Numbered from the stretch's first letter, positions 9,466 to 58,175 are shown. The stretch: DNA of 58,727 nucleotides from an uncultured Thermoproteaceae archaeon (GCA_964575955.1 CAZNTG010000008.1:1-58727); one strand, 5' to 3'. Notes: generated by a model from the sequence alone, not told the origin. Numbers and translations: made by a program.

Positions 9466-10233
9466 ATGAGTGAAAGTGTTGATCTTGCACCAACAGGAAT
9501 AGATGGTCTAGATGAGATACTTGGTGGTGGTCTTCCTAGAGGTAGAACGTACTTAGTAACAGGTGAGACTGGTACATGTAAAACTCTATTCTCACTAACT
9601 TTTCTCATAGGTGGTGCTGTTAAGCATGGTGAACCTGGAATATATGTATCTGTTGATGAAGATTATTCACAATTTGTTAAAGGTGCCTATGCATTTGGTT
9701 GGGATATTGAATATCTTAGAAGTGAAGGTCTACTTGAAGTATTGATACCTGAGACTGAGCTTATTGAGAAGATTAGAGAGAAAGATCCTACAGCTGTTGC
9801 ACGTTCAATAGTTATGTCTATTGCTGAATATGTAAAAACTTTGAGAGCTACTAGACTAGTCATTGATCCAATAGCACCATTAGTAACACTTGAGAAAGAT
9901 GTTCAAGTACTTAGAGAGTATATTAGAACTCTAGTTTTAGAAATTGAGAAGAAGATTGGTACAACAACAATAATAACAACAGAGATACCTTCAGGTAGTA
10001 GTTCTCTATCTAGATATGGTGTTGAAGAGTTTCTAGCATCTGGAGTATTTGTACTTGGTATTGCTAGAACGAGTAGTGGAGATTTTAAGAGATTTCTATT
10101 CATTAGAAAGATTAGGTGGAGACCTGTAGAACCAGGAATTTATGAGATTGGTGTTGAGAGAGGTAAGGGAGTGTTTATAAAGGGTAGGTTGAGAAATGTG
10201 CATGTTCCATATATAAGTACTGTGATGCTTTAA
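9466..10233 (+). CDS. KaiC/RAD55 (aRadC)-family RecA-fold ATPase
   Basis: TGIDGLDEILGGGLP, GETGTCKT, RLVIDP, IRKIRW. Confidence 0.9.
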   Translation: MSESVDLAPTGIDGLDEILGGGLPRGRTYLVTGETGTCKTLFSLTFLIGGAVKHGEPGIYVSVDEDYSQFVKGAYAFGWDIEYLRSEGLLEVLIPETELIEKIREKDPTAVARSIVMSIAEYVKTLRATRLVIDPIAPLVTLEKDVQVLREYIRTLVLEIEKKIGTTTIITTEIPSGSSSLSRYGVEEFLASGVFVLGIARTSSGDFKRFLFIRKIRWRPVEPGIYEIGVERGKGVFIKGRLRNVHVPYISTVML

Positions 10234-34869: not shown

Positions 34870-35613
34870 ATGAGTTTAATGTTTTTACTATATGTTTTAG
34901 GTATTGTTGTAGTTTCATTAATAGTTTCACTTGTTATACTTAGATTTTTAGAAAGCTACTTTTTGAAGAGTTTTAAAGATCTTGATGCTAGTTTTGTTAA
35001 GAAGAACTTGAGGTCTATAAGGATGTTTATACTAATATCAATACTACTTGTAGGTATCTACTTCATTATTAGAGAATTTCCTATGCTATCTGCATATCTA
35101 ACTCATATAGATATGCTATTCTTTTCTACATGGACTATATGTTGTGGATATGTTATTTATAGAATTATAGGACTGTCATTAAGATCATTCTCATATAGAA
35201 CAAAAATTTCTAAATCTACCATAGATGTAATATACAAATTCTCTAAATGGACTATAGTCCTGATAGTAATTTTAATACTATTAAGAATATTTGGAATATT
35301 GAAAAATGTTATATACATAATAACGCTAGTAATAGGAACATTAATATTTCTAGCATTTGCAGGATGGAGCATTATAGGAAACATAACAGCAGGAATAGTA
35401 CTAATGATATGGAAACCATTCGAAATAGGAGACTACATAGAGATAATACCTGAAAACATAACAGGAAAAGTAGAAGACATAACACTAATGTTCGTAAGAA
35501 TAGTAACAGAGAAGGGAGAAGTGATAAACATACCAAACACACTACTAATACAGAGATTCATAAGAAAAGTTAGTAAAGATATACTACACAATAAGCATAT
35601 ACATCAAGCTTAA
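34870..35613 (+). CDS. mscS: Small-conductance mechanosensitive channel family
   Basis: NITAGIVL..KPFEIGDYIEI, GKVEDI, IPN. Confidence 0.85.
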   Translation: MSLMFLLYVLGIVVVSLIVSLVILRFLESYFLKSFKDLDASFVKKNLRSIRMFILISILLVGIYFIIREFPMLSAYLTHIDMLFFSTWTICCGYVIYRIIGLSLRSFSYRTKISKSTIDVIYKFSKWTIVLIVILILLRIFGILKNVIYIITLVIGTLIFLAFAGWSIIGNITAGIVLMIWKPFEIGDYIEIIPENITGKVEDITLMFVRIVTEKGEVINIPNTLLIQRFIRKVSKDILHNKHIHQA

Positions 35614-35961
35614 ACGCCTAAATGCTCACTACGTCATGCATCCTCAGATATGTACATAGCATACTGTAATTGATGTAAACACAAAGTCAGTTTAAGCAAT
35701 AGTCTTTGAGTTGTGTATAAAGGAATTGTCAATCACGTTGTCATTAGCTAGGAAGAGTTGCTGAGAGCTAACTCATGTTGATTTCCTCTCACTTGAGTTA
35801 TCATTATGGCGCCCTATTATAAACACTAGTAATAACTTAAATCTCTTATCTTAATTCTTAATTGCCGCTATATGTTGTGCTCAAGCAATATTTCTGATAG
35901 GCGCAGCACACTATGGAATTGCTGTGTCGGCTATAGTTTACTATAGATTAAAGCTGGGGTA

Positions 35962-36771
35962 TTATGAATATTTTATAAGAGTTAGAGTTTGGATAGTATG
36001 TTTAGTAGCATATGCTCTACCTGGGGGCATCTTTGCCTCAAGCTCCCGTATAACCAAGTCATCTTGAGTCATTAGGTAGTACACGTATCTTCTCAGTATT
36101 AGCTCTGGCAAGCTGCGTTGCGCTGTTACGTGGTTAACATATTGCCATGTCTTTACGAGGCTATTCACATGTTTGAGATATTTTGCAAGTGCTGTCTCGT
36201 CTCTTGTCCTAGCCTTGTTGACTATCAGGACAATGTTCTCAACTTCTCGATACTCCTTAAGTAACTGAACGTGTTTAGCGAAGTAGCTTAAGCATTCGCT
36301 AGTCTCCTCAGCCACGAATGCAATAACATCTGCAGCTGTGAGCACGGTATTTACAGGATCTACTATGCGACATGCAGGCATGTCAACGATCACATATGCT
36401 CCAAGTACCTTAGCGATCCTGCGAACCAACATACACAGCCTCTTCCAGTCAATTTTCGAAACCTCTTCAGGTCTAGCTTGACCTGCAGGTATGAGAACGA
36501 TGTTGTCCCTACCCTCAATGCCATGCAAGACGTCACGTAGCTTGCATTTGCCCAGGAGGTAGTCAAGTATACCATAGCTGTGCCTCCCTGGCCTCCTAAC
36601 AAACTCACCAATGGTCTCAAACAGTAGGTGTAGATAATCCATGTCTATGGATAGGTCAAGATAGACAACGGGATAACCATGTAAATCAGCGAATATTGTC
36701 GTCAATAGGCTGAGAGTTGTCTTGCCCGTACCACCCTTCTCACCACTGTAGATAGCTACAACCCTACCCAC
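35962..36771 (-). CDS. ParA/MinD-family ATPase
   Basis: GTG at 36771: GRVVAIYSGEKGGTGKTT, YLDL, IVDMP, IVNK. Confidence 0.85.
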   Translation of the reverse strand: MGRVVAIYSGEKGGTGKTTLSLLTTIFADLHGYPVVYLDLSIDMDYLHLLFETIGEFVRRPGRHSYGILDYLLGKCKLRDVLHGIEGRDNIVLIPAGQARPEEVSKIDWKRLCMLVRRIAKVLGAYVIVDMPACRIVDPVNTVLTAADVIAFVAEETSECLSYFAKHVQLLKEYREVENIVLIVNKARTRDETALAKYLKHVNSLVKTWQYVNHVTAQRSLPELILRRYVYYLMTQDDLVIRELEAKMPPGRAYATKHTIQTLTLIKYS

Positions 36772-36804
36772 GTAGAGACCCAACTTAAAACTCGACCCGT
36801 CCAC

Positions 36805-37263
36805 ATGACCCCCACGGGGAGGAGCATAGACCTGGAAAAGATTAGGAAAAAGTTGGAAGAAGCGAAGACGCTTGAAGAGAAGAGGCTGATCATAGAGGAG
36901 TTGCGTGACTACAGGCAGTACCTCAGAGAGAAGCTCGGTAGGAGGGAGAGTACGATTCTCGGTCTTCTCATCGCAACAATAGTTACAGTACCACTGCAAG
37001 CACTGACACTTACACCTAAAGTAGTGACAATGGTACTACCCCTCATATATGCAGCTGCACTAGTCTACGCTGGGTATCTAAAGAACATGTGTGAGACCCT
37101 GGAAGAGAAAATAAGGGGGCTGTACGACATTACTCTTGACCCACCCATGAGCGAGAAACACGAGATGAAGGATAGGACATGTGATCTAGCATTTTGGACA
37201 ATGCTTGTAATAACGATCATTTCAATAATAATCGCACTGATAAAACTGGGAGTAATACCGTGA
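36805..37263 (+). CDS. Three-TM membrane protein (start uncertain)
   Basis: Charged N-terminus, 2 TM, C-terminal TM DLAFW...KLGVIP. Confidence 0.65.
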   Translation: MTPTGRSIDLEKIRKKLEEAKTLEEKRLIIEELRDYRQYLREKLGRRESTILGLLIATIVTVPLQALTLTPKVVTMVLPLIYAAALVYAGYLKNMCETLEEKIRGLYDITLDPPMSEKHEMKDRTCDLAFWTMLVITIISIIIALIKLGVIP

Positions 37264-37495: not shown

Positions 37496-37566
37496 GGAGC
37501 ATGTTGCTATAGTCCTCTCAAAACCTCTGTAGCCTCCCTCCCCCTCTTTTTACTTCCCCCATATTC

Positions 37567-38004
37567 ATGACCCCCACGGAGATTGAGATTATCAGGAGGT
37601 TGAGTGAGCGTGATGTTGAGCTTGCTGTAGAGTTTGCATTATCTGAGCTTGCTGCTATAGCTGAGGAGATTAGGAGTCTGAAGGTTCTGCTGCTTGGTAA
37701 TGTTATTGGCTCTGCAGGTGCTGCAGTAGTCATGAAGATTCTTGCACTTCCCCTACTAGCCAAGGCTGCTGCAGTGACGATACTCGCAGTGACGATAGTG
37801 ATAGTGTTAGTGCTGATACGTAAAGCAGTGATTAAGAGAGAGCTCATCCTGAGAACACTGCTACAGGCACTGGAGGACAGTTCTAGAAATCGAAACCAAT
37901 ATAATGACTGTGACTGTAGTTACCACATGCGTGAGCTCTTCTGGGCTTGTCTTGTAACTGCAATCGCGTGGATAATAGTTACCCTACTGATAGTACTGGG
38001 GTGA
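37567..38004 (+). CDS. Three-TM membrane protein
   Basis: Same architecture as the 36805 ORF; ends ELFW...LIVLG. Confidence 0.65.
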   Translation: MTPTEIEIIRRLSERDVELAVEFALSELAAIAEEIRSLKVLLLGNVIGSAGAAVVMKILALPLLAKAAAVTILAVTIVIVLVLIRKAVIKRELILRTLLQALEDSSRNRNQYNDCDCSYHMRELFWACLVTAIAWIIVTLLIVLG

Positions 38005-44988: not shown

Positions 44989-45225
44989 ATGAGGCTAGTC
45001 GAGAAGATTGTCAAGGAGACACGTGCCAGAGCAATGATGAGCATCTTGACCAAGCTCATCGACCTGCTAAATGGCTTAGCAGCACTTACGCTGCTCGACA
45101 AGGATGTTGATACCACACTGAGGATCCTGGACATGCAGCATAGCCTAATCAAGATGCTGCAAGACAAGTGGACTCTCCTGCAAGAACTTGAGGACATGGA
45201 AGAGGACGAACAACCCCCATCCTGA
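44989..45225 (+). CDS. Small helical hypothetical protein
   Basis: Follows the coiled-coil gene closely. Confidence 0.55.
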   Translation: MRLVEKIVKETRARAMMSILTKLIDLLNGLAALTLLDKDVDTTLRILDMQHSLIKMLQDKWTLLQELEDMEEDEQPPS

Positions 45226-45348
45226 ACATCCATTCTTAAAGCTTTGAGAACGTCCATTCTTAACGTCTTAAGAATGGGGCTTGAGAAAGCCCACGGCCGT
45301 GTAGGACCATTCTTAAGGCTTTGAGAATGGAGGTTCAGGATGGGGGTT
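45212..45348. repeat. 39-bp inverted repeat enclosing three CCATTCTTAA-N4-TTRAGAA palindromes
   Basis: Arms 45212-45250 and 45310-45348 (4 mismatches); units at 45230, 45254 and 45307. Confidence 0.9.
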
Positions 45349-45649: not shown

Positions 45650-47080
45650 CTACTTCTCTGGTGCTTCCTCTAGTCTCTTTCTCTCTAATCTCTGCTGTAC
45701 CTGCTGCACAATTTCTCTCTTCCTGGAGTAATATTCTGCTGCTGTGAATCTTATTCCTGCTTCAGCAGCTATTACTAGGTCCAGGAAGTTGAGTGGTGTG
45801 AATTTCTTCCACATTACTACTGCCACTGTTACTAGTGGTGTTATTGATCCTAGTGCTGCGAGTATTAGGAGGGTTGGTGCCTGTATTAGGAGTGCATTCA
45901 GTCCCTGTATGGCATCTAGTGCAATTTTCTGTGCTAGTGCACTATAGTTCACGTGGCAGTGGAATAGCCATCCAAAGATGTTGCACTTGACGTACTCTGC
46001 GGCTAGGCTTGCAGCGGCGGCTGCTGCATGTAGGAGAGTCTTGACTCCCCATGCAGCAACCTCACCTGCATGTACATACATTCCACCTATCAGCTGTGTT
46101 ACCACTGCACCTAGGAGGGTGCCAACTAGCAGTCCCCAGAACGTGCCTTCTATCGCAATGCCGAGACTGCGTAATGCGCGTATACGTACCTCCTGAAGTG
46201 CGATGCCTATCGGTAGGCAGATCTGCATTATCAGTGCAATGAGCAGTTTCAGATAGAGCATGAGTGCTACAAATCCTGTAGTTATGATGTGTAGCTGCAA
46301 TATCGATCCTGGAATCTTGCTCACGGCTGGGATGATGATGCCTGCAAGCGGCACCAAGAGTGGCAGTACTGTCAGCACGGTCATGATTCCCCACGCGACA
46401 AATCCTGCATAGAAGACATTCCAGTTCGTGACTGTGAACACAAGCTGGTTCCAGACGGATATTATGCTTGGCAGCAGGACTAGGAGGATGCCCGCAACAC
46501 AGCACTTTATCAAGAGTCCTCCCGATCTTCTAAACGCCTCGGCTGGGTCTCTCCCACTCGTGATCTCTCCAACAATGCTCCACAGGGAGACTGCTGCTAG
46601 GAACGCTATGACGCTTGCATTTACGAGGGTCACAGCTCCACGTGGCCCTAGCCAGCTGCTGGGCGCGAAGCACCTCAACTCTGGGACTCCAACAAAGATC
46701 TGCTGAATGATGTCTGGACAGACTCCTGTACCCGTGGGCACGGGTAGGAACGTGACGTTTGTAGCATTACCTGTAATAGATGTGTTTAGAATGTTTATGA
46801 ATGTTGAGACTGTGCCTGCGGTAGATGCAATACTCTTAACGCTCTTCACAATGAGCGTGTTCGTTCTGTCAAGCTTCTTCGATATGTTCATTAGAAGCCT
46901 ATTCTCCTCCTCTAACAGCTTAACAATCTTGTCTAGACGCTGCAGTATTGGCTTAACGTTAACCTCACACTTACAGTGACATACACACACGACCTTGGTC
47001 ACATTGCTACTATGGGCAATCCCCGACATGACTAGCAGAGCTAGGACAGCTAGGACAGATATCAGAGCCAGCCCACGCAT
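45650..47080 (-). CDS. Polytopic membrane protein, VirB6/TrbL-like topology
   Basis: ATG at 47080; signal peptide, coiled-coil, then many TMs including ..QICLPIGIAL. Confidence 0.55.
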   Translation of the reverse strand: MRGLALISVLAVLALLVMSGIAHSSNVTKVVCVCHCKCEVNVKPILQRLDKIVKLLEEENRLLMNISKKLDRTNTLIVKSVKSIASTAGTVSTFINILNTSITGNATNVTFLPVPTGTGVCPDIIQQIFVGVPELRCFAPSSWLGPRGAVTLVNASVIAFLAAVSLWSIVGEITSGRDPAEAFRRSGGLLIKCCVAGILLVLLPSIISVWNQLVFTVTNWNVFYAGFVAWGIMTVLTVLPLLVPLAGIIIPAVSKIPGSILQLHIITTGFVALMLYLKLLIALIMQICLPIGIALQEVRIRALRSLGIAIEGTFWGLLVGTLLGAVVTQLIGGMYVHAGEVAAWGVKTLLHAAAAAASLAAEYVKCNIFGWLFHCHVNYSALAQKIALDAIQGLNALLIQAPTLLILAALGSITPLVTVAVVMWKKFTPLNFLDLVIAAEAGIRFTAAEYYSRKREIVQQVQQRLERKRLEEAPEK

Positions 47081-47099
47081 AGGAGTGGAGAAAAGAAAA

Positions 47100-47252
47100 G
47101 GCGGGGAGAATGCCCCCCTTCTCCTCATCTCGATGATCCTCTTCATTTTTACATCCGTCCTGTCGGGATGAGCCCCATTATCGGGCTTCACCTATCTGTG
47201 TCCCGGGGGGCTGGGCCGCCTCGGTTCATTGGAGACCTCCCCGAGGCGGTCT
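47100..47252 (-). ncRNA. GC-rich structured leader/RNA upstream of the VirB6-like gene
   Basis: CTTAAAA box ~30 nt upstream of hairpin CCGCCTCGG/CCGAGGCGG; parts are repeated at 55855 and 58101. Confidence 0.45.
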
Positions 47253-47370
47253 ACAGAGAGCTCTCGAAGCTATCTTTTAAGTCCTTTTCTTAGTTGTCTC
47301 GGCTTATAGGTGTATTATGCCGAGTGCAGCTTGGGTGGATCGAGTAGTATATCGTCTATCTGTCTTAAAG

Positions 47371-47811: not shown

Positions 47812-47872
47812 GCTGAACCGCAAGTTTTAAGGACAGGGACAGAGCTTAATAACGACCTTCAATCCTATAAGA

Positions 47873-47920
47873 CCATTCTTAAAGTTTTGAGAAGACCATT
47901 CTTAAAGACGTTAAGAGTGG
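47873..47920. repeat. Two tandem CCATTCTTAA palindromic units
   Basis: CCATTCTTAAagttTTGAGAA and CCATTCTTAAagacgTTAAGAGTGG. Confidence 0.85.
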
Positions 47921-47954: not shown

Positions 47955-48095
47955 ATGAGGATCAGGTTGGAGAGAGTGAATGATAGGGTAGTAACGATAT
48001 GCGAACTTGAGAATTTTGACCAAGACATCGTGCAGCTGGTCGAGCTGCTAAAAGCGAGGAGATATCGCAAACACATCAAAATAATCATAGAGTGA
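47955..48095 (+). CDS. 46-aa hypothetical protein
   Basis: MRIRLERVNDRVVTICE...; TATTTAA box upstream. Confidence 0.35.
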   Translation: MRIRLERVNDRVVTICELENFDQDIVQLVELLKARRYRKHIKIIIE

Positions 48096-48140
48096 GAAAA
48101 AGGAACACAAGAAAGAGCGGAGATCTTTAAGTTGTGTAGG

Positions 48141-48353
48141 CTAGTCCCAGGGTCTACATGTGTCGAAGAGCACTATTTTGCCCCTGTCCTTGACGCACAT
48201 TGCGATATCTCTCGCATATATGCTGACTTCGAGGTAGCTTCTCCTCGATATTATCGATCCTACACTTGTGTACTTGTCGTCCTTTGCCAGGCGTATCTTG
48301 ACCATGCTGAGTGGTGCGGTAAGTATCTTCTGACCCTCTACCAGCAGCATCAC
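48141..48353 (-). CDS. Small hypothetical protein
   Basis: ORF downstream of the KaiC-like gene; GAGGTG before ATG. Confidence 0.4.
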   Translation of the reverse strand: MMLLVEGQKILTAPLSMVKIRLAKDDKYTSVGSIISRRSYLEVSIYARDIAMCVKDRGKIVLFDTCRPWD

Positions 48354-48431
48354 CTCATCGCCGTAGTAGCGTAGTACGAGGTTAGCACCTACACGCTTGT
48401 CAGTTTTTGAGCCTAGGCCCGGGGAAGGGGG

Positions 48432-49448
48432 TCACTGTACTGGCTCTAGTATGAGCTTGCTCATGTCGCCTTCCTTAGCGAAGTCTATCCTGAACAGGTA
48501 GTGCTTGATCGCTGTCATCCTTGCCTTCTTTATTGCGAGGTAGCGCTCTAGCTTTTTGCTTGTCTTGACGTCGCTCATCCACGTCTCCATTACGACGTCT
48601 GCAATGTGCTCGGCTCCGAAGCCGAAGAGGCCCTTGGTCGTGGCTGCGTATTGGCAGGTCAGTAACGCCGTGATGTTATTCCTGTGGTAGGTAAGCTTCA
48701 GCTGGTAGCTGTATTTGCGTGCCATTGCTGGCTTATCAACCCAGAAAGTTGACATTGAGTCTATGATTAGGCGTATATGTTGACCCCTCTCAACCTCAAG
48801 AACCTCATAAGCCTTGTCTAGCGCATATATCAGCGTGTCAATACTCCATGGAGCGTAGATCTTCCTGCTCGTCTTCTTTGTCCTGCTCTCCTTTTCCTCC
48901 CTCTCCTCCTGCATGGCAAGCTTAGCTACGCGACTCAGACCGAAGAGGTCTATAACAACGATGTCAGGTGTCTTACTAGGCTTCTCAAAAGTCCACTCCT
49001 TGTCTTTGCGATCCCACTGTACGACCTCTGCAAGGTTCAGGATCTTGAACTGCATGAAGTCTATCCCGAACTGTCTTGCCTGTGTAACAATGTCATAGAA
49101 CTCCTGCTCAGTAGTGACGTAGATGACCTTGTCATCCCCCGCTATGAGACCAGCAGCTGCGAAGTGAATCGCTAGGATACTCTTACCAGTACCCGGCTCA
49201 CCACCAATAACAACCCAACTACCCTTAGGAACACCACCCTCAAGAGCATCATCAAGCCTCTCTATCCCAAAGCTCACTCTGGTGACCTTGACCTTCCCCT
49301 CCCCTATCTCTTCCCTACCCTTCTTGACCTTCCTGCGCTTGGTCTTCTTCTCGGTACCCTCCTCCTCGACCTCTTCCACAACTATGCCCTTCTCCTCAGC
49401 AACATCGAGCCCCGTCTTGAACTCGATTTTCTCGGACCTCTCCGTCAC
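48432..49448 (-). CDS. KaiC-domain ATPase, PAE1156-like subfamily, with acidic/basic N-terminal extension
   Basis: GGEPGTGKS, IDSMSTFWVDKPAMARKYSY, EHIAD, KKARMT; GTG at 49448 chosen because the upstream sequence is hairpin-rich. Confidence 0.85.
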   Translation of the reverse strand: MTERSEKIEFKTGLDVAEEKGIVVEEVEEEGTEKKTKRRKVKKGREEIGEGKVKVTRVSFGIERLDDALEGGVPKGSWVVIGGEPGTGKSILAIHFAAAGLIAGDDKVIYVTTEQEFYDIVTQARQFGIDFMQFKILNLAEVVQWDRKDKEWTFEKPSKTPDIVVIDLFGLSRVAKLAMQEEREEKESRTKKTSRKIYAPWSIDTLIYALDKAYEVLEVERGQHIRLIIDSMSTFWVDKPAMARKYSYQLKLTYHRNNITALLTCQYAATTKGLFGFGAEHIADVVMETWMSDVKTSKKLERYLAIKKARMTAIKHYLFRIDFAKEGDMSKLILEPVQ

Positions 49449-49610
49449 CTCTCCCCGGGCTGGAAGGCCCGGGGTTTCTTTCATCCTCTGTGCGGGCTCT
49501 CTCACCTTTTTGAGACCCGCATGATCAGGCATCATCTGTCAGTCCCCGGGGTGTGGGGTACCCCCAGACTCGGGCAATGCCCTCATCGTCTGGGGAGACA
49601 GACACCTCGC
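49449..49610 (-). ncRNA. Structured 5' leader with kink-turn
   Basis: ccccagac-GAT-GA-gggc-att-gccc-GA-gtctgggg plus two further GC hairpins; CTTAAAAA box upstream. Confidence 0.6.
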
Positions 49611-49707
49611 ATTTACCACAGGCTGAAGGATTTTTAAGACCATGTGACAATGCTCCTAATAGTGAACTTCTCAAGATCGAGACGCCGTTTTAACTCGTGT
49701 ATAGCTG

Positions 49708-49753
49708 GTCCCCGGAGGGGTGTGTCTCCGTGGGGGTTCCCGATGAGGGGGGT
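49708..49753 (+). ncRNA. Candidate small GC-rich RNA
   Basis: TTTTAA box at 49688; hairpin; contains TCTCCGTGGGGGT. Confidence 0.35.
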
Positions 49754-50002
49754 CTACTCCTCTGCTGGTATTATGATTACCCTAAACCTGTCATAGTTCT
49801 CGAGGTGTTTCGGTACTTGGACTATGATTAGCTTGGCTTTCTGTCTCCCACCCTTGGACACGCGTAGATATGTCTTGCAGCTTGGCCACATCACTGCTGG
49901 TCCTCTAACAACTAGTCCTCTAGATCTTTCGAAGACGTACGCTTCCTCAAGCTCGATGTACTTCCTGTTTGGTGCCTCTCTCGTCTTCACTTTCAACACC
50001 AT
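49754..50002 (-). CDS. Small beta-rich hypothetical protein
   Basis: 82-aa ORF divergent from parB. Confidence 0.55.
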   Translation of the reverse strand: MVLKVKTREAPNRKYIELEEAYVFERSRGLVVRGPAVMWPSCKTYLRVSKGGRQKAKLIIVQVPKHLENYDRFRVIIIPAEE

Positions 50003-50123
50003 GTCTCGGTCTAGGAGTTATAAGGCTCGCATCTCCAGGACGTGCACGTGTACGATACGTGTCAATGGACATAGAGTCCACGTCGCGACTTGACACAGCC
50101 CCCTTTTAATTGGCCTATAAGTC

Positions 50124-51545
50124 ATGTTCTTAACACACCTCAGTCCCAGGGAGGTCCTAGAGAAACTCAAGCCTCCACGTGAGGCAGTTTCCGACCCTAC
50201 GCCTGACGAGGACCTTGTCGAGTCTATCAGGAACGTTGGTGTCAAGGTTCCAATTATTGTAGATAGGAATTACGTTATCATTGATGGTGTTAGGAGGTTC
50301 AACGCCATTAGGAAACTGCTACAGGAGGGGGTCGAGCTTCCCCTAATACCTGTCCTAATCTTGAACGATGTTGACTATGAGGCAAGTCCAGAAGAGGCGC
50401 TGCTATGTGCGTTCTTAGTTAACAGGTACAGGAGGGGTGGACGTGATGATCACTTCAACACGGACCTAATCGCGGATCTGCTGCTAAAGCTTGCACTCAG
50501 GATAGCTAAGCCAGTAGAGAGGCAGGACCTTAGGAGAGGGACAATACCTGAGAGGGTACGTAGAGAGCTTGCAAAGCTTACAGGTCTATCACGTACACAT
50601 GTCTACGAGCTTCTTCAGAAGGCTCTTGCTAGGAGGAGGCTTGGTGTAAAGTCACCATGTACTACTGCTCAGGTTTGTCAGAGTTGCAGAGTTGAAAGTT
50701 CCACAGCACATCCTGAAGATGTTTCAACTCTGCAGACACATTCTATTCCTCGTCATGTCTCTGTGCAGAGTCTGCGCGTTGGTGAACATGGCTGTGGTGT
50801 AATACATGGTCGGTGTACAATTGGTACGCGACCATCAGGAAGGGGTGAGCATCAGGAAGGTGAGGACCTTAGTAGAGTCGTAGATGCTGTCTGTACTGCA
50901 GCTGAGAGACTTGGCAGTGGCTTTCTTAGAAAGGTTGCGCTAGGCGAGCTACCTACCAGGGTAGCTGAGGAGGCTGGAAGGATCTTGAATAGGAGCACAC
51001 GCACAGTCTTCGAGTACTGGTACAGACACCGTGATGCTATTGTTGAGGAGGCTAGGAGGAGGTACCTTGCCGACCTCAAGGTTCCCAAATCCAAGGCTGA
51101 GCTATTTCTGAGACTACCTGAAGATTTCATCAGATGGCTCAGACAGCTGTCGCCTTGGCTCTTGAAGAGGGTCGTAGAGCACGTTGATCCTGACGTTGTT
51201 GAGCAGGCAGCTAGGCTATTTCAGCATGGTCGTGAACGTGATTCTCTCCGCATTCTCGTAGAGGCTGCACGTGGCAGAGACATCTCCAGGGTAGACCTTC
51301 CCGACCATGTCATGGACATGGTTATCGAGCTTGGGACCTATGTCGATCTAGATCTTGCTCTTAGAGCCATAGTTGAGGTTGGTGCTGCATTTCTACGACT
51401 ACTACAGCACAAGGCAAGGTCCGTACCTGATCCAAGAACATTCTGCGAGTCAGCCATCAGGCAGGTCCTGTCACTATCCTCGATCAAGGATGTTCAGGAC
51501 CTGTGGCATGAGGTGAGGGATATCCTCGACATGGTGAAGCCATGA
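50124..51545 (+). CDS. ParB/Srx N-terminal domain plus HTH protein
   Basis: LVESIRNVGVKVPIIV...IIDGVRRFNA; ELAKLTGLSRTHV. Confidence 0.85.
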   Translation: MFLTHLSPREVLEKLKPPREAVSDPTPDEDLVESIRNVGVKVPIIVDRNYVIIDGVRRFNAIRKLLQEGVELPLIPVLILNDVDYEASPEEALLCAFLVNRYRRGGRDDHFNTDLIADLLLKLALRIAKPVERQDLRRGTIPERVRRELAKLTGLSRTHVYELLQKALARRRLGVKSPCTTAQVCQSCRVESSTAHPEDVSTLQTHSIPRHVSVQSLRVGEHGCGVIHGRCTIGTRPSGRGEHQEGEDLSRVVDAVCTAAERLGSGFLRKVALGELPTRVAEEAGRILNRSTRTVFEYWYRHRDAIVEEARRRYLADLKVPKSKAELFLRLPEDFIRWLRQLSPWLLKRVVEHVDPDVVEQAARLFQHGRERDSLRILVEAARGRDISRVDLPDHVMDMVIELGTYVDLDLALRAIVEVGAAFLRLLQHKARSVPDPRTFCESAIRQVLSLSSIKDVQDLWHEVRDILDMVKP

Positions 51546-53734: not shown

Positions 53735-53749
53735 AACTGGCTAAGGAAC

Positions 53750-54511
53750 ATGACCCCCACGGAGAGGAGACTGCCACTGTTACATGAGGTTGTTGATCTT
53801 GATGAGACTAAGCGCAGCATAGATAGGCTGTCTAGGAGAGAGGTCCTGCAGATTCTTGGTGATGACTTTGTGCAGCATGATGGTCATGTGTTTCATATCG
53901 TGCATATCAGGGATAGGGTGCCCGTTACCGTGCTGTCAGCAGTAGCTGAATGTCCATGGACAACGGTTGTTGCTAGGCTACTCGCAGAGAGGTATGGTGC
54001 GGAGGAGAATACGCTATACGTGCCTGTTAACCCGCACGCACTACTGTATGGCCGCCTCATACATGAGAAGTACCTGACATTTCTCGAAGAGGAGCTTAAC
54101 ATACCTGTCGAGGTTGAGCTTGAGGCTGAGGCTCAGATCAATGGTAGGTCTGTAAAGATTGTCGGTAGGGTAGACGCATTAATGCCAGGCAGTGGACGCA
54201 TAGTTGTCCTAGAGGTCAAGACTGGCAGCAAGATATCTCTAAGACACATGGTGCAGGTGTGGACCTATGTCCACATGTTGAACATGTACGTAGAGGACAA
54301 GATTGCTAAACCACTCTTCCTAACGCCCAGAGGCTTTGAGAAAGTCGACAAGTACTACGCCTGGAGAGACATCCTACAGCTAATCTCTCTCGTACTATAC
54401 ATCATCGATAAGGATGGAGACGTCACATGGGACAGAAAGAGAAACTGCCCCAGAACAAGATGCCCATACTATCCATGGTGCCCAAAGGCAGTTAAACTAG
54501 ACCTGGCGTAA
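53750..54511 (+). CDS. Stand-alone Cas4-like exonuclease (start uncertain)
   Basis: ECP, GRLIH, GRVDAL, LEVKTG, QVWTY, CPRTRCPYYPWC. Confidence 0.85.
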   Translation: MTPTERRLPLLHEVVDLDETKRSIDRLSRREVLQILGDDFVQHDGHVFHIVHIRDRVPVTVLSAVAECPWTTVVARLLAERYGAEENTLYVPVNPHALLYGRLIHEKYLTFLEEELNIPVEVELEAEAQINGRSVKIVGRVDALMPGSGRIVVLEVKTGSKISLRHMVQVWTYVHMLNMYVEDKIAKPLFLTPRGFEKVDKYYAWRDILQLISLVLYIIDKDGDVTWDRKRNCPRTRCPYYPWCPKAVKLDLA

Positions 54512-57360: not shown

Positions 57361-58074
57361 CTACGAGACACTCCACCTCCCCCTTCCCAGTGGCTCCTCT
57401 CTTCTAATACCTAGCCTACGAACATCTTCCTGGATCTTTCTGACCTCGCTGTACAGCTCATCTCCAAGTACATCCCTAAGAGCATCTTCGTAGGACATCT
57501 CAGGGTATAGACCGAGAAGTTTCAAGACGTCTCTCAGAGACATGTCGAGCAGAAGAACCTTCTTATCATCATCTAGGTTAAGCAGATCGTATACCAGGTC
57601 CCTAATTTCTAGACCGTAGATCTTGGCTAGGTTATGTAGCCTACGAACGTAGTCTTCACATACCTCGGAGATGCCATACTCATCACATAGAGCAACAATC
57701 TTCTTCACAATGTCCGACCTAGAGAACCGGTCGTGTTCTAGTCTTAGCGTGACAACATCCTCATCACATGCATGTACTTTCACGTCCGTGATATCTCTAA
57801 GATGACGTGATATATCGTGGTCATACGGTCCATACTTGTATATCTTGAAGTTGAATAGCTCAACCATCGGACTAATCTCAAGCTTTGAACCATCTCTCGT
57901 CAACGTGGCAGCACACAGAAGCTTCTGTATGGAAGTCTCATTGACAGTCTTCAGAAGCAGGATAGCAAGCTCAGTAAACAACCTACGCAGCCTAGCCTTA
58001 ACATCCTCAGGCAAACCCCTAACACGCCCAAACAAGACAACCTCCACCACACACCGAGCTAATAAACATACCAT
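57361..58074 (-). CDS. Panacea/SocA (DUF4065)-like antitoxin-domain protein
   Basis: IQKLL...FKIYKYGPYDHDI. Confidence 0.55.
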   Translation of the reverse strand: MVCLLARCVVEVVLFGRVRGLPEDVKARLRRLFTELAILLLKTVNETSIQKLLCAATLTRDGSKLEISPMVELFNFKIYKYGPYDHDISRHLRDITDVKVHACDEDVVTLRLEHDRFSRSDIVKKIVALCDEYGISEVCEDYVRRLHNLAKIYGLEIRDLVYDLLNLDDDKKVLLLDMSLRDVLKLLGLYPEMSYEDALRDVLGDELYSEVRKIQEDVRRLGIRREEPLGRGRWSVS

Positions 58075-58100
58075 TCACCTAAAAAGCCTGACCCCCGTGA

Positions 58101-58133
58101 CCCCCTTCTCCTCATCTCGATGACCCTCCTCAT
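58101..58133. repeat. 33-bp direct repeat of 47114-47146
   Basis: CCCCCTTCTCCTCATCTCGATGAyCCTCyTCAT, 2 mismatches. Confidence 0.85.
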
Positions 58134-58147
58134 CTTGGATATTCCCC

Positions 58148-58175
58148 GAACGTCCATTCTTAACGTCTTTAAGAG
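58148..58175. repeat. Sixth CCATTCTTAA palindromic unit
   Basis: GAACGTCCATTCTTAACGTCTT is identical to 45248-45269. Confidence 0.85.

Follow-up and report, generated by a model that had tools for sequence, protein, structure and literature searches.

We analyzed a contig of 58,727 nucleotides (nt) from an uncultured Thermoproteaceae archaeon (GCA_964575955.1, CAZNTG010000008.1), hereafter the window, which carries on its minus strand a gene for a KaiC-family ATPase preceded by a stretch of hairpins. We found that this leader (49443-49600) is likely the orphaned remnant of an insertion sequence (IS), a module with a promoter of its own that resembles the guide RNA (omega-RNA) of TnpB and has become fused to the 5' end of the KaiC gene. 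In related Thermoproteota the module would form the outward-reading end of TnpB-only insertion sequences of the IS200/IS605 type; in the window tnpB is missing, and the module adjoins the 5' region of what is plausibly an element-borne KaiC_arch_4 gene. An initial annotation, made from the sequence alone, had described the same hairpins as a leader with a kink turn (K-turn), through which host L7Ae or a riboswitch-like ligand controls translation of a captured ATPase. The layout it gave, a TATA-like box followed by ~160 nt of GC-rich hairpins, was confirmed (Table 1).

The leader belongs to a family of structured RNAs

A DNA search for homologues in 61 related genomes separated the gene from its leader. 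The body of the KaiC gene matched chromosomal KaiC genes, and the leader matched a separate contig of a genome of the same genus (G002). Positions 49603-49444 of the window are 81% identical to G002:C141:1869-2023, and the homology between the two stops sharply after ..GGTGAC. Compensatory changes between these copies were found in the canonical (C) stem of the K-turn and in hairpin 2, along with single-base indels. We built two covariance models (CMs), R1 from two copies and R2 from eight. The module in the window scored 188 bits with R1 and 156 bits with R2. R1 gave 7 matches in 6 of 101 relatives. With R2, matches rose to 41, spread over 18 of the class's 120 genomes (for the family of the host, 13 of 30).

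The proposed helices were then compared with controls in which the columns were slid by one. In 31 sequences, 90.6% of the cells were paired (52.8% and 52.6% in the slid controls) and 32 of the 37 pairs changed on both sides, which was reached by 0 of 500 shuffles; in eight sequences the values were 95% (55% when slid) and 26 of 37, all of these counts being inflated because the CM alignments were fitted to the model. A real structure is still supported by the slid controls and by the range of pair types seen. The predicted fold of 49430-49640 was also more stable than that of shuffled sequences (RNAfold, -89.2 kcal/mol; shuffle mean -73.9, standard deviation 4.8, z -3.2), with 1 of 200 shuffles equally stable, in agreement with the stacked hairpins of the initial annotation. 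The riboswitch that it had considered was not found: Rfam gave no significant match to the module region (48000-50500). The four matches at E<=10 (mir-4654, ClpQY_promoter, toxic sRNA, and WT1-AS_7) were far below the gathering cut-offs and were judged to be chance.

Family members and the ends of tnpB insertion sequences

The module copy in G002:C141 begins at the stop codon of an open reading frame (ORF) on the same strand, which encodes a TnpB-like protein of 426 amino acids (aa) with a Cas12f1-like TNB domain (PF07282, 33.6 bits vs a cut-off of 26.3). Linkage to tnpB was scored with tblastn at 30 loci, over 1.5 kb on each side where the contig permitted. We found tnpB upstream of the RNA at 10 of these loci, with 1 further weak case, and downstream at none; this count is a lower bound because many loci end at contig ends. 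One of the ten linked loci is tandem (G002:C141), eight are divergent, and one is overlapping. At the divergent loci the tnpB stop lies 1.26-1.31 kb upstream of the RNA, and the two genes share an AT-rich box between them.

Two copies in one complete genome (G013) align over 1491 nt at 73% identity. The alignment stops within 1 nt of the end of the CM match (the 3' end of the RNA) and 13 nt past the tnpB stop. The flanks of eight copies diverge directly after GTGAC/GTCAC/CGTCA. Copies of the G013-type IS carry a matching hairpin, CGCCCYTTNAGGGCGGGGAG, at both ends in direct orientation, which we take to be a signature of IS200/IS605 ends and not of an IS with inverted repeats. The boundary match and the direct-orientation end hairpins together indicate that a TnpB-only IS has this RNA as its outward-reading right end. 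As in omega-RNAs, the scaffold stops at its 3' end where the IS does, and a variable flank comes next (G013 copies and the eight flanks). The position on the same strand at the 3' end of tnpB holds for G002:C141 and not for the eight divergent loci. A TCAC-like motif beside three of four IS left ends gives no more than a hint as to the transposon-associated motif.

The anatomy of the module would be that expected of an omega-RNA, comprising a TATA promoter, a multi-hairpin scaffold, and a last hairpin that doubles as the right-end hairpin of the IS. Since the 3' end abuts the IS boundary, a transcript would continue into the flanking DNA. Boxes like CTTAAAAAT of the window, namely CTTTAAAACTCC and GTTTAAAACTCT, precede the module copies in G002:C141 and G002:C162, and CTTAAAAAT is a candidate promoter. 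In the window itself, no tnpB stands beside the module and only a patchy, possible 3' remnant was seen (Table 1), where tblastn did not detect tnpB similarity (49601-49700). DNA upstream of the module gave no meaningful alignment with DNA upstream of the G002 element. The flank from 49443 downward occupies the would-be guide position, and the 20-nt flank there matched itself alone in the genome at up to 3 mismatches.

An alternative is that the hairpins act at the level of DNA only, with no role as RNA: they could be IS200/IS605 ends to which TnpA binds in single-stranded DNA, or a site where the element is partitioned or replicated. The match of the last hairpin to the subterminal hairpins at both IS ends and a ParB-like gene 600 bp away would fit this. 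However, six helices within 160 nt, a long-range helix, G-U pairs (for example, GU 9 times at one pair and UG 8 times at another), and strand-specific K-turns suit RNA better, and several copies have a TATA box in front of them. We consider a DNA-only role highly improbable.

Several observations were made beside these loci. The 82-aa ORF upstream of the module in the window (49754-50002) was compared with a 77-aa ORF of G002 and with the small ORF upstream of tnpB in the G013-type IS, and a relationship was excluded in both cases (no BLASTP alignment and an hhalign probability of 0.5%, respectively). A possible second module copy in the window (Table 1) is located immediately upstream of, or overlapping, the 5' end of an ORF for a 513-aa membrane protein. 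A 39-nt repeat, 90% identical between 47111-47149 and 58098-58136, lies in the 5' regions of the minus-strand genes 45650-47191 and 57361-58074. Its first occurrence overlaps the weak second copy, and its end (..GAUGAGGAGAAGGGGGUCA) is like the 3' part of the G002:C162 copy; the repeats may be module remnants or paralogous N-termini. In four of four copies of the G013-type IS, a conserved ORF of ~49 aa (..RISSHGGGRFIIYIPK..) lies between the shared AT-rich box and tnpB; it is encoded on the strand opposite to the RNA, ~55-200 nt upstream of it (L067, L104, L068, and L112, in G014, G026, and G013); by eye it resembles an AbrB/SpoVT-type swapped-hairpin protein. At the locus L122 (G017:C16), the RNA match (1501-1639) overlaps a tnpB frame on the opposite strand (tblastn residues 169-366), and one element may be nested in another.

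Hairpin 1 contains a kink turn

The initial annotation had placed a consensus K-turn at 49562-49595, and the hairpin at 49596-49561 bears this out. It has the parts of a simple K-turn of the Kt-7 or box C/D type. The C stem (49596-49588 with 49569-49561) has 9 bp, the outermost being U.G, and is followed by a 3-nt bulge (G49587, A49586, U49585; GAU) and the tandem pairs G49584.A49570 and A49583.G49571. The non-canonical (NC) stem (49582-49579 with 49575-49572) has 4 bp (GGGC/GCCC) and the loop AUU, and the 3b.3n position is G-C. In silico, the hairpin remains the predicted fold at 85 C. A loose K-turn pattern (C stem of at least 7, NC stem of at least 3, short span) was matched at least once in 26% of 200 shuffles of the foreign segment that holds the module, and 61 times in the genome. 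The bare pattern is not rare, so the strength of the case lies in homology and covariation and not in the motif alone. One loose match upstream of the host l7ae gene sits upstream of the TATA box of that gene and was dismissed as chance.

In the G002 and G003 copies the C stem shows compensatory changes from C-G to U-A, and the GAUGA..GA core does not vary; in the three closest copies, a swap of GAC/GUC to GAU/AUC stands alongside the invariant G.A core. In the wider family, K-turn or kink-loop (K-loop) motifs with tandem GA were found in hairpin 1 of 20 of 28 full-length members, in three layouts. Three members have the 5'-bulge K-turn, 14 have GA..GA on the basal stem, 3 have a CUGA-N-UGAUG loop, and 8 have none; 3 more are truncated. 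The basal-stem layout is either a reverse-polarity K-turn with an apical stem of 3-4 bp or a K-loop, and the 5'-bulge type of the window is restricted to the three closest copies. Of the 31 family rows, 19 also have a second motif, CUGA-N3-5-UGAUG(CC). It resembles the box C'/D' consensus and may be a K-loop.

The K-turn motif is kept while its layout shifts, which points to selection for an L7Ae-type site in the RNA family. The K-turn is probably an ancestral feature of the family and not an adaptation to KaiC. The host encodes L7Ae (PF01248, E 1.1e-30), as the initial annotation had assumed, and most likely the K-turn would recruit it as an architectural subunit of the RNA or of a ribonucleoprotein.

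The long reading frame through the hairpins

The KaiC frame is open from ATG 49535, within the hairpin region, and candidate starts are ATG 49535, ATG 49484, and GTG 49448 or further down. The earlier placement of the hairpins between the TATA box and the gene therefore holds if translation starts near 49484 or 49448, and fails if the frame is used from ATG 49535. In the latter case the hairpins would be incidental to a coding N-terminus. Relatives do carry N-terminal extensions of 60-90 aa, and a 99% identical protein of 367 aa has been called in another assembly. However, the extensions of the relatives are acidic and unrelated to residues 1-30 of the element ORF. Homologous DNA elsewhere has frame-breaking indels together with compensatory base-pair changes, and in the G002 copy the ATGATG frame terminates after 10 codons. 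Both ATGs are inside conserved RNA motifs: ATG 49535, with ATG 49532, belongs to the second motif and its conserved AUGAUG, whereas ATG 49484 is part of the conserved GAUGAAAGAA.

A variant contig of 151 nt from another sample crosses the junction between the module and KaiC. It has a depth of 2 and is weak evidence. Its indels lie within or at the edge of the ORF (-1 at 49470, -1 at 49488, and +1 behind 49535) and shift the frame, such that only GTG 49448 or a later start would be left in frame; an SD-like (Shine-Dalgarno-like) GAGGUGA is found at 49451-49445 on the minus strand. Because conserved RNA motifs account for the nucleotides of ATG 49535 and of ATG 49484, the long ORF running through the hairpins is probably fortuitous, and we regard a coding role of the hairpin region as improbable. 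Among the variant contigs compared (contigs only), we found no empty-site form without the module.

The KaiC gene and its relatives

The annotation of the gene as a KaiC-family ATPase was upheld (PF06745, E 3.7e-33; TIGR03881 KaiC_arch_4, 263.6 bits vs a cut-off of 247.8). KaiC_arch_4 proteins are single-domain KaiC/RecA-like ATPases of Thermoproteota. The element protein has an intact P-loop with the Walker A sequence GEPGTGKS, which is invariant across the alignment of relatives. Its closest relatives (69-78% identity) bear an acidic N-terminal extension of 60-90 aa and include a chromosomal copy of the host itself (G000:C3, 354 aa). The initial annotation had noted that PAE1156-like KaiC proteins are chromosomal as a rule. 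This host copy is surrounded by housekeeping genes, as are the same-genus copies inspected. Unlike other KaiC_arch_4 genes, the element copy lies on a foreign segment of 45-51% GC, has a shortened acidic extension, and has the IS module in front of it. In a maximum-likelihood tree, the element KaiC and its 99% identical twin form their own long branch (0.23) within the N-extended clade. They are not the sister of the host copy.

With 25 element ORFs as queries, tblastn against nine loci with KaiC relatives matched KaiC alone, and there is thus no synteny. A scan of viral contigs with the KaiC protein found no relative. The RNA module was absent from 47 of 47 loci with KaiC relatives, including the host copy, and AT-rich DNA with no hairpins lies upstream of the gene in three of three close relatives and in the host copy. 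Further KaiC-family genes of the host lie in the host part of the window (9466-10233, plus strand; PF06745, E 6e-64) and at G000:C6:203273-203971, C6:508198-508893, C3:91939-92724, and C9:98955-99647.

A possible role of the module in front of KaiC

Between 49443 and the KaiC domain we saw no AT-rich box and no T-run, which suggests that KaiC is probably transcribed from the module promoter or from further upstream. The module would then probably serve as a 5' leader of KaiC by read-through. L7Ae control of KaiC is possible on this basis, and any such effect would be a by-product of the IS-derived RNA or a later exaptation.

The initial annotation had gone further and proposed a 5' leader dedicated to the element KaiC, whose translation would be controlled by host L7Ae or by a ligand. 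Several observations agree with such a leader. The K-turn has the canonical form, and it shares the GAU bulge of the Sulfolobus acidocaldarius l7ae leader, as given in the accessible parts of PMC5539422. L7Ae is encoded by the host, module and KaiC share a strand and are separated by no terminator-like T-run, the junction is kept in the variant contig from another sample, and the possible second copy likewise stands immediately before a gene that runs in the same direction. A KaiC-specific switch is nevertheless not supported by the distribution of the module, which is mobile, occurs in unrelated contexts and beside tnpB, and is found at 0 of the 47 KaiC-relative loci, so that the leader is not conserved with the gene. 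The K-turn also lies at the 5' end of the leader, distant from all candidate starts and from the SD: at least 26 nt separate it from the first in-frame ATG downstream, and no Shine-Dalgarno sequence is masked by it, while the known l7ae switch has its K-turn at the SD (PMC5539422, accessible parts). Together with the lack of an Rfam riboswitch match, this makes a dedicated leader unlikely.

Several points also weigh against an origin of the module as an omega-RNA-like IS remnant. In addition to the inflated pair counts, promoter and RNA ends as well as read-through into KaiC are all predicted from sequence. The open frame reaches into the hairpin region as far as ATG 49535, the start that a gene caller chose (P0001, 367 aa). 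Only one of the four closest copies (window, G002:C141, G003:C354, and G002:C162) adjoins tnpB, and most tnpB-linked copies are divergent, while the published layout of omega-RNA is 3' of tnpB on the same strand. The 426-aa ORF of G002 hits NF040570 (guided_TnpB) weakly, below the NCBIfam TnpB cut-offs. The junction between module and KaiC is seemingly kept in the variant of another sample (one 151-nt contig, depth 2), which would fit a retained leader function. Finally, the genome of the window (G000) holds only a distant TnpB with 29% identity, and none was seen that is close enough to use the RNA.

With the omega-RNA-like origin taken as the likely one, a broader proposal can be put forward only tentatively. 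The RNA family might provide the guide RNA for a lineage of crenarchaeal TnpB that depends on a host protein, with L7Ae recruited into a three-part TnpB-RNA-L7Ae particle by the K-turn and K-loop motifs in their three layouts. The RNA gene would be an independent transcription unit that may be divergent from tnpB. Orphan copies (before KaiC, perhaps 47108-47253, and near 58100) could have been exapted as portable promoter-plus-leader cassettes that bring adjacent genes under a control sensitive to L7Ae.

Comparison with known RNAs

Cas12 descends from TnpB and its omega-RNA, which also serve as compact tools for genome editing. The module family is like an omega-RNA in being a structured non-coding RNA of a tnpB-bearing IS whose scaffold ends at the IS right end and shares its terminal hairpin with that end, and in G002:C141 the RNA follows tnpB directly on its 3' side, as in the classic layout. 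It differs in that eight loci are divergent behind a shared AT-rich box, hairpin 1 holds a K-turn or K-loop, the window copy has no tnpB, and there is no Rfam match. The accessible parts of the literature describe the omega-RNA or right-end RNA (reRNA) of TnpB in IS200/IS605 elements such as ISDra2 (PMC8612924), sense overlapping transcripts of archaeal IS1341-type tnpB (PMC4615843), and archaeal omega-RNAs at tnpB 3' ends (PMC12817955, PMC12558985). In literature searches on TnpB with L7Ae or kink-turns, which did not cover subscription journals, we found no natural K-turn in an archaeal omega-RNA. No divergent omega-RNA gene was found in the literature searched, and K-turn and L7Ae terms are absent from the accessible parts of PMC12558985. 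A kink-turn has been proposed for conserved nucleotides in the bacterial reRNA of IS607 TnpB derived from RAGATH-18 (PMC11061315, accessible parts). That RNA is bacterial, ~73 nt long, and downstream of IS607 tnpB, and the Rfam scan showed no sequence relation to it here.

For L7Ae, autoregulation through a K-turn within the l7ae 5' untranslated region (UTR) is established, and the accessible parts of that work state that Thermoproteales have no l7ae 5' UTR (Daume et al. 2017, PMC5539422). The l7ae K-turn adjoins and masks the SD, and L7Ae binding blocks initiation (PMC5539422, accessible parts). The K-turn of the window resembles it in being simple, in having two G.A pairs next to a GAU bulge, and in lying in what would be an mRNA leader; unlike it, the window K-turn is at the far 5' end of a mobile 160-nt module, ~110 nt from GTG 49448.

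The module shares further features with small RNAs (sRNAs). Archaeal box C/D sRNAs have the consensus RUGAUGA / CUGA and are classic L7Ae sites. The GAUGA..GA of hairpin 1 and the CUGA-N3-5-UGAUG motif resemble C/D and D'/C' pairs. Unlike box C/D sRNAs, the module has spacings that exclude 12-nt guides, has no terminal C/D pair, is three times longer, and lies in an IS.

If the omega-RNA-like origin is true, a lineage in thermophilic archaea with K-turns, a promoter of its own, and an orientation often divergent from tnpB would represent a new omega-RNA architecture. It would also provide a testable case of host-factor dependence of TnpB, known omega-RNAs having been described as two-part systems read from the tnpB 3' end. 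For KaiC, both the apparent regulatory leader and the annotated N-terminus would derive from an IS, and function should be inferred from them only with caution unless transcript data are at hand.

Table 1 Features of the RNA module and the KaiC gene in the window, with the evidence for each
Feature	Position	Strand	Evidence
TATA-like box CTTAAAAAT, putative promoter of the RNA module	49630-49638	-	~30-37 nt upstream of hairpin 1
Structured-RNA module, probable orphan TnpB-associated omega-RNA-like right-end scaffold	49443-49600	-	81% identity to G002:C141:1869-2023; CM scores
Hairpin 1 with K-turn	49561-49596	-	Sequence, RNAfold, motif, compensatory changes
Hairpin 2, CCCC-ACACCCC-GGGG	49544-49558	-	Helix 3, 95% paired; 4/4 pairs change on both sides
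CUGA-CAG-AUGAUGCC motif, box D'/C' K-loop-like	49528-49542	-	Family conservation; holds the first ATGs of the ORF (49535, 49532)
Hairpin 5, GCGGG...CCCGC	49491-49521	-	Helix 5, 85.5% paired
Conserved single-stranded GAUGAAAGAA motif	49476-49485	-	Same in G002:C141, near-identical in L066; holds in-frame ATG 49484
Terminal hairpin CCCCGGG-loop-CCCGGGG, equivalent of the IS right-end subterminal hairpin	49453-49474	-	Helix 6, 94% paired
3' tail ..AGAGGUGAC(G), limit of family homology	49443-49452	-	Holds in-frame GTG 49448; flanks of 8 copies diverge
Possible tnpB remnant, patchy similarity to the 3' coding end of G002 tnpB	49601-49700	-	DNA alignment; weak
Possible second, diverged module copy	47108-47253	-	Weak: R1 15.3 bits, E 2.6e-4, filters off; R2 25.5 bits
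KaiC_arch_4 ATPase, maximal ORF of 367 aa	48432-49535	-	KaiC domain from ~residue 86 (~49280)

Genomic context

The window is the whole of contig C8 in a 15-contig genome (G000; 1.52 Mb, ~33% GC, completeness 94.7%). From position 1 to ~35,900 it is host-like, with ~30% GC and genes for Csa1, Cas1, S-adenosylhomocysteine hydrolase, and others. At ~35.9-36.0 kb the GC content jumps from ~0.30 to 0.45-0.51 and persists at this level up to the contig end. This segment of 45-51% GC is unique in the genome. Its genes include those for ParA-like, ParB-like, XPD-like helicase, Cas4-like, GmrSD, and HEPN/PaREP1 proteins and many ORFans. A PHROGs search of the segment returned only the ParB-like protein, the helicase, the Cas4-like protein, and two unknown families, with no virion genes, and a search of the window found neither an integrase nor a tRNA. 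The foreign composition and the element-type genes agree with the initial description of the KaiC gene as element-borne. The segment continues off the contig, and carriage of the gene and the module on a mobile element is plausible.

The GC step (~35,900-36,000) falls between a mechanosensitive-channel gene (34870-35613) and the ParA-like gene (35962-36999, minus strand), and no tRNA, integrase, or direct repeat was identified in this region. The step may mark an integration site or a chimera of the assembly. Within the foreign segment, the sequence ACATGACCCCCACGGRGAGGAG is found at the annotated starts of three element ORFs (36803-36824, 37565-37586, and 53748-53769, plus strand). Its core, ACCCCCACGGAG, occurs at 49726-49737 on the minus strand, just past the stop codon of the upstream 82-aa ORF. 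These are 4 matches observed vs 0.04 expected, and the motif could be a common N-terminus (MTPTE) or a small hairpin with an SD leader. A second repeat of ~16-32 nt, ..GACCATTCTTAAAG..TTTGAGAA, has 5-6 intergenic copies in the segment (45219-45327, 47862-47907, and 58143-58174) and may be an operator or promoter element. In the host-like part, Csa1 and Cas1, adaptation genes of the type I-A style of clustered regularly interspaced short palindromic repeats (CRISPR) systems, are located at the beginning of the contig (175-2784, plus strand).

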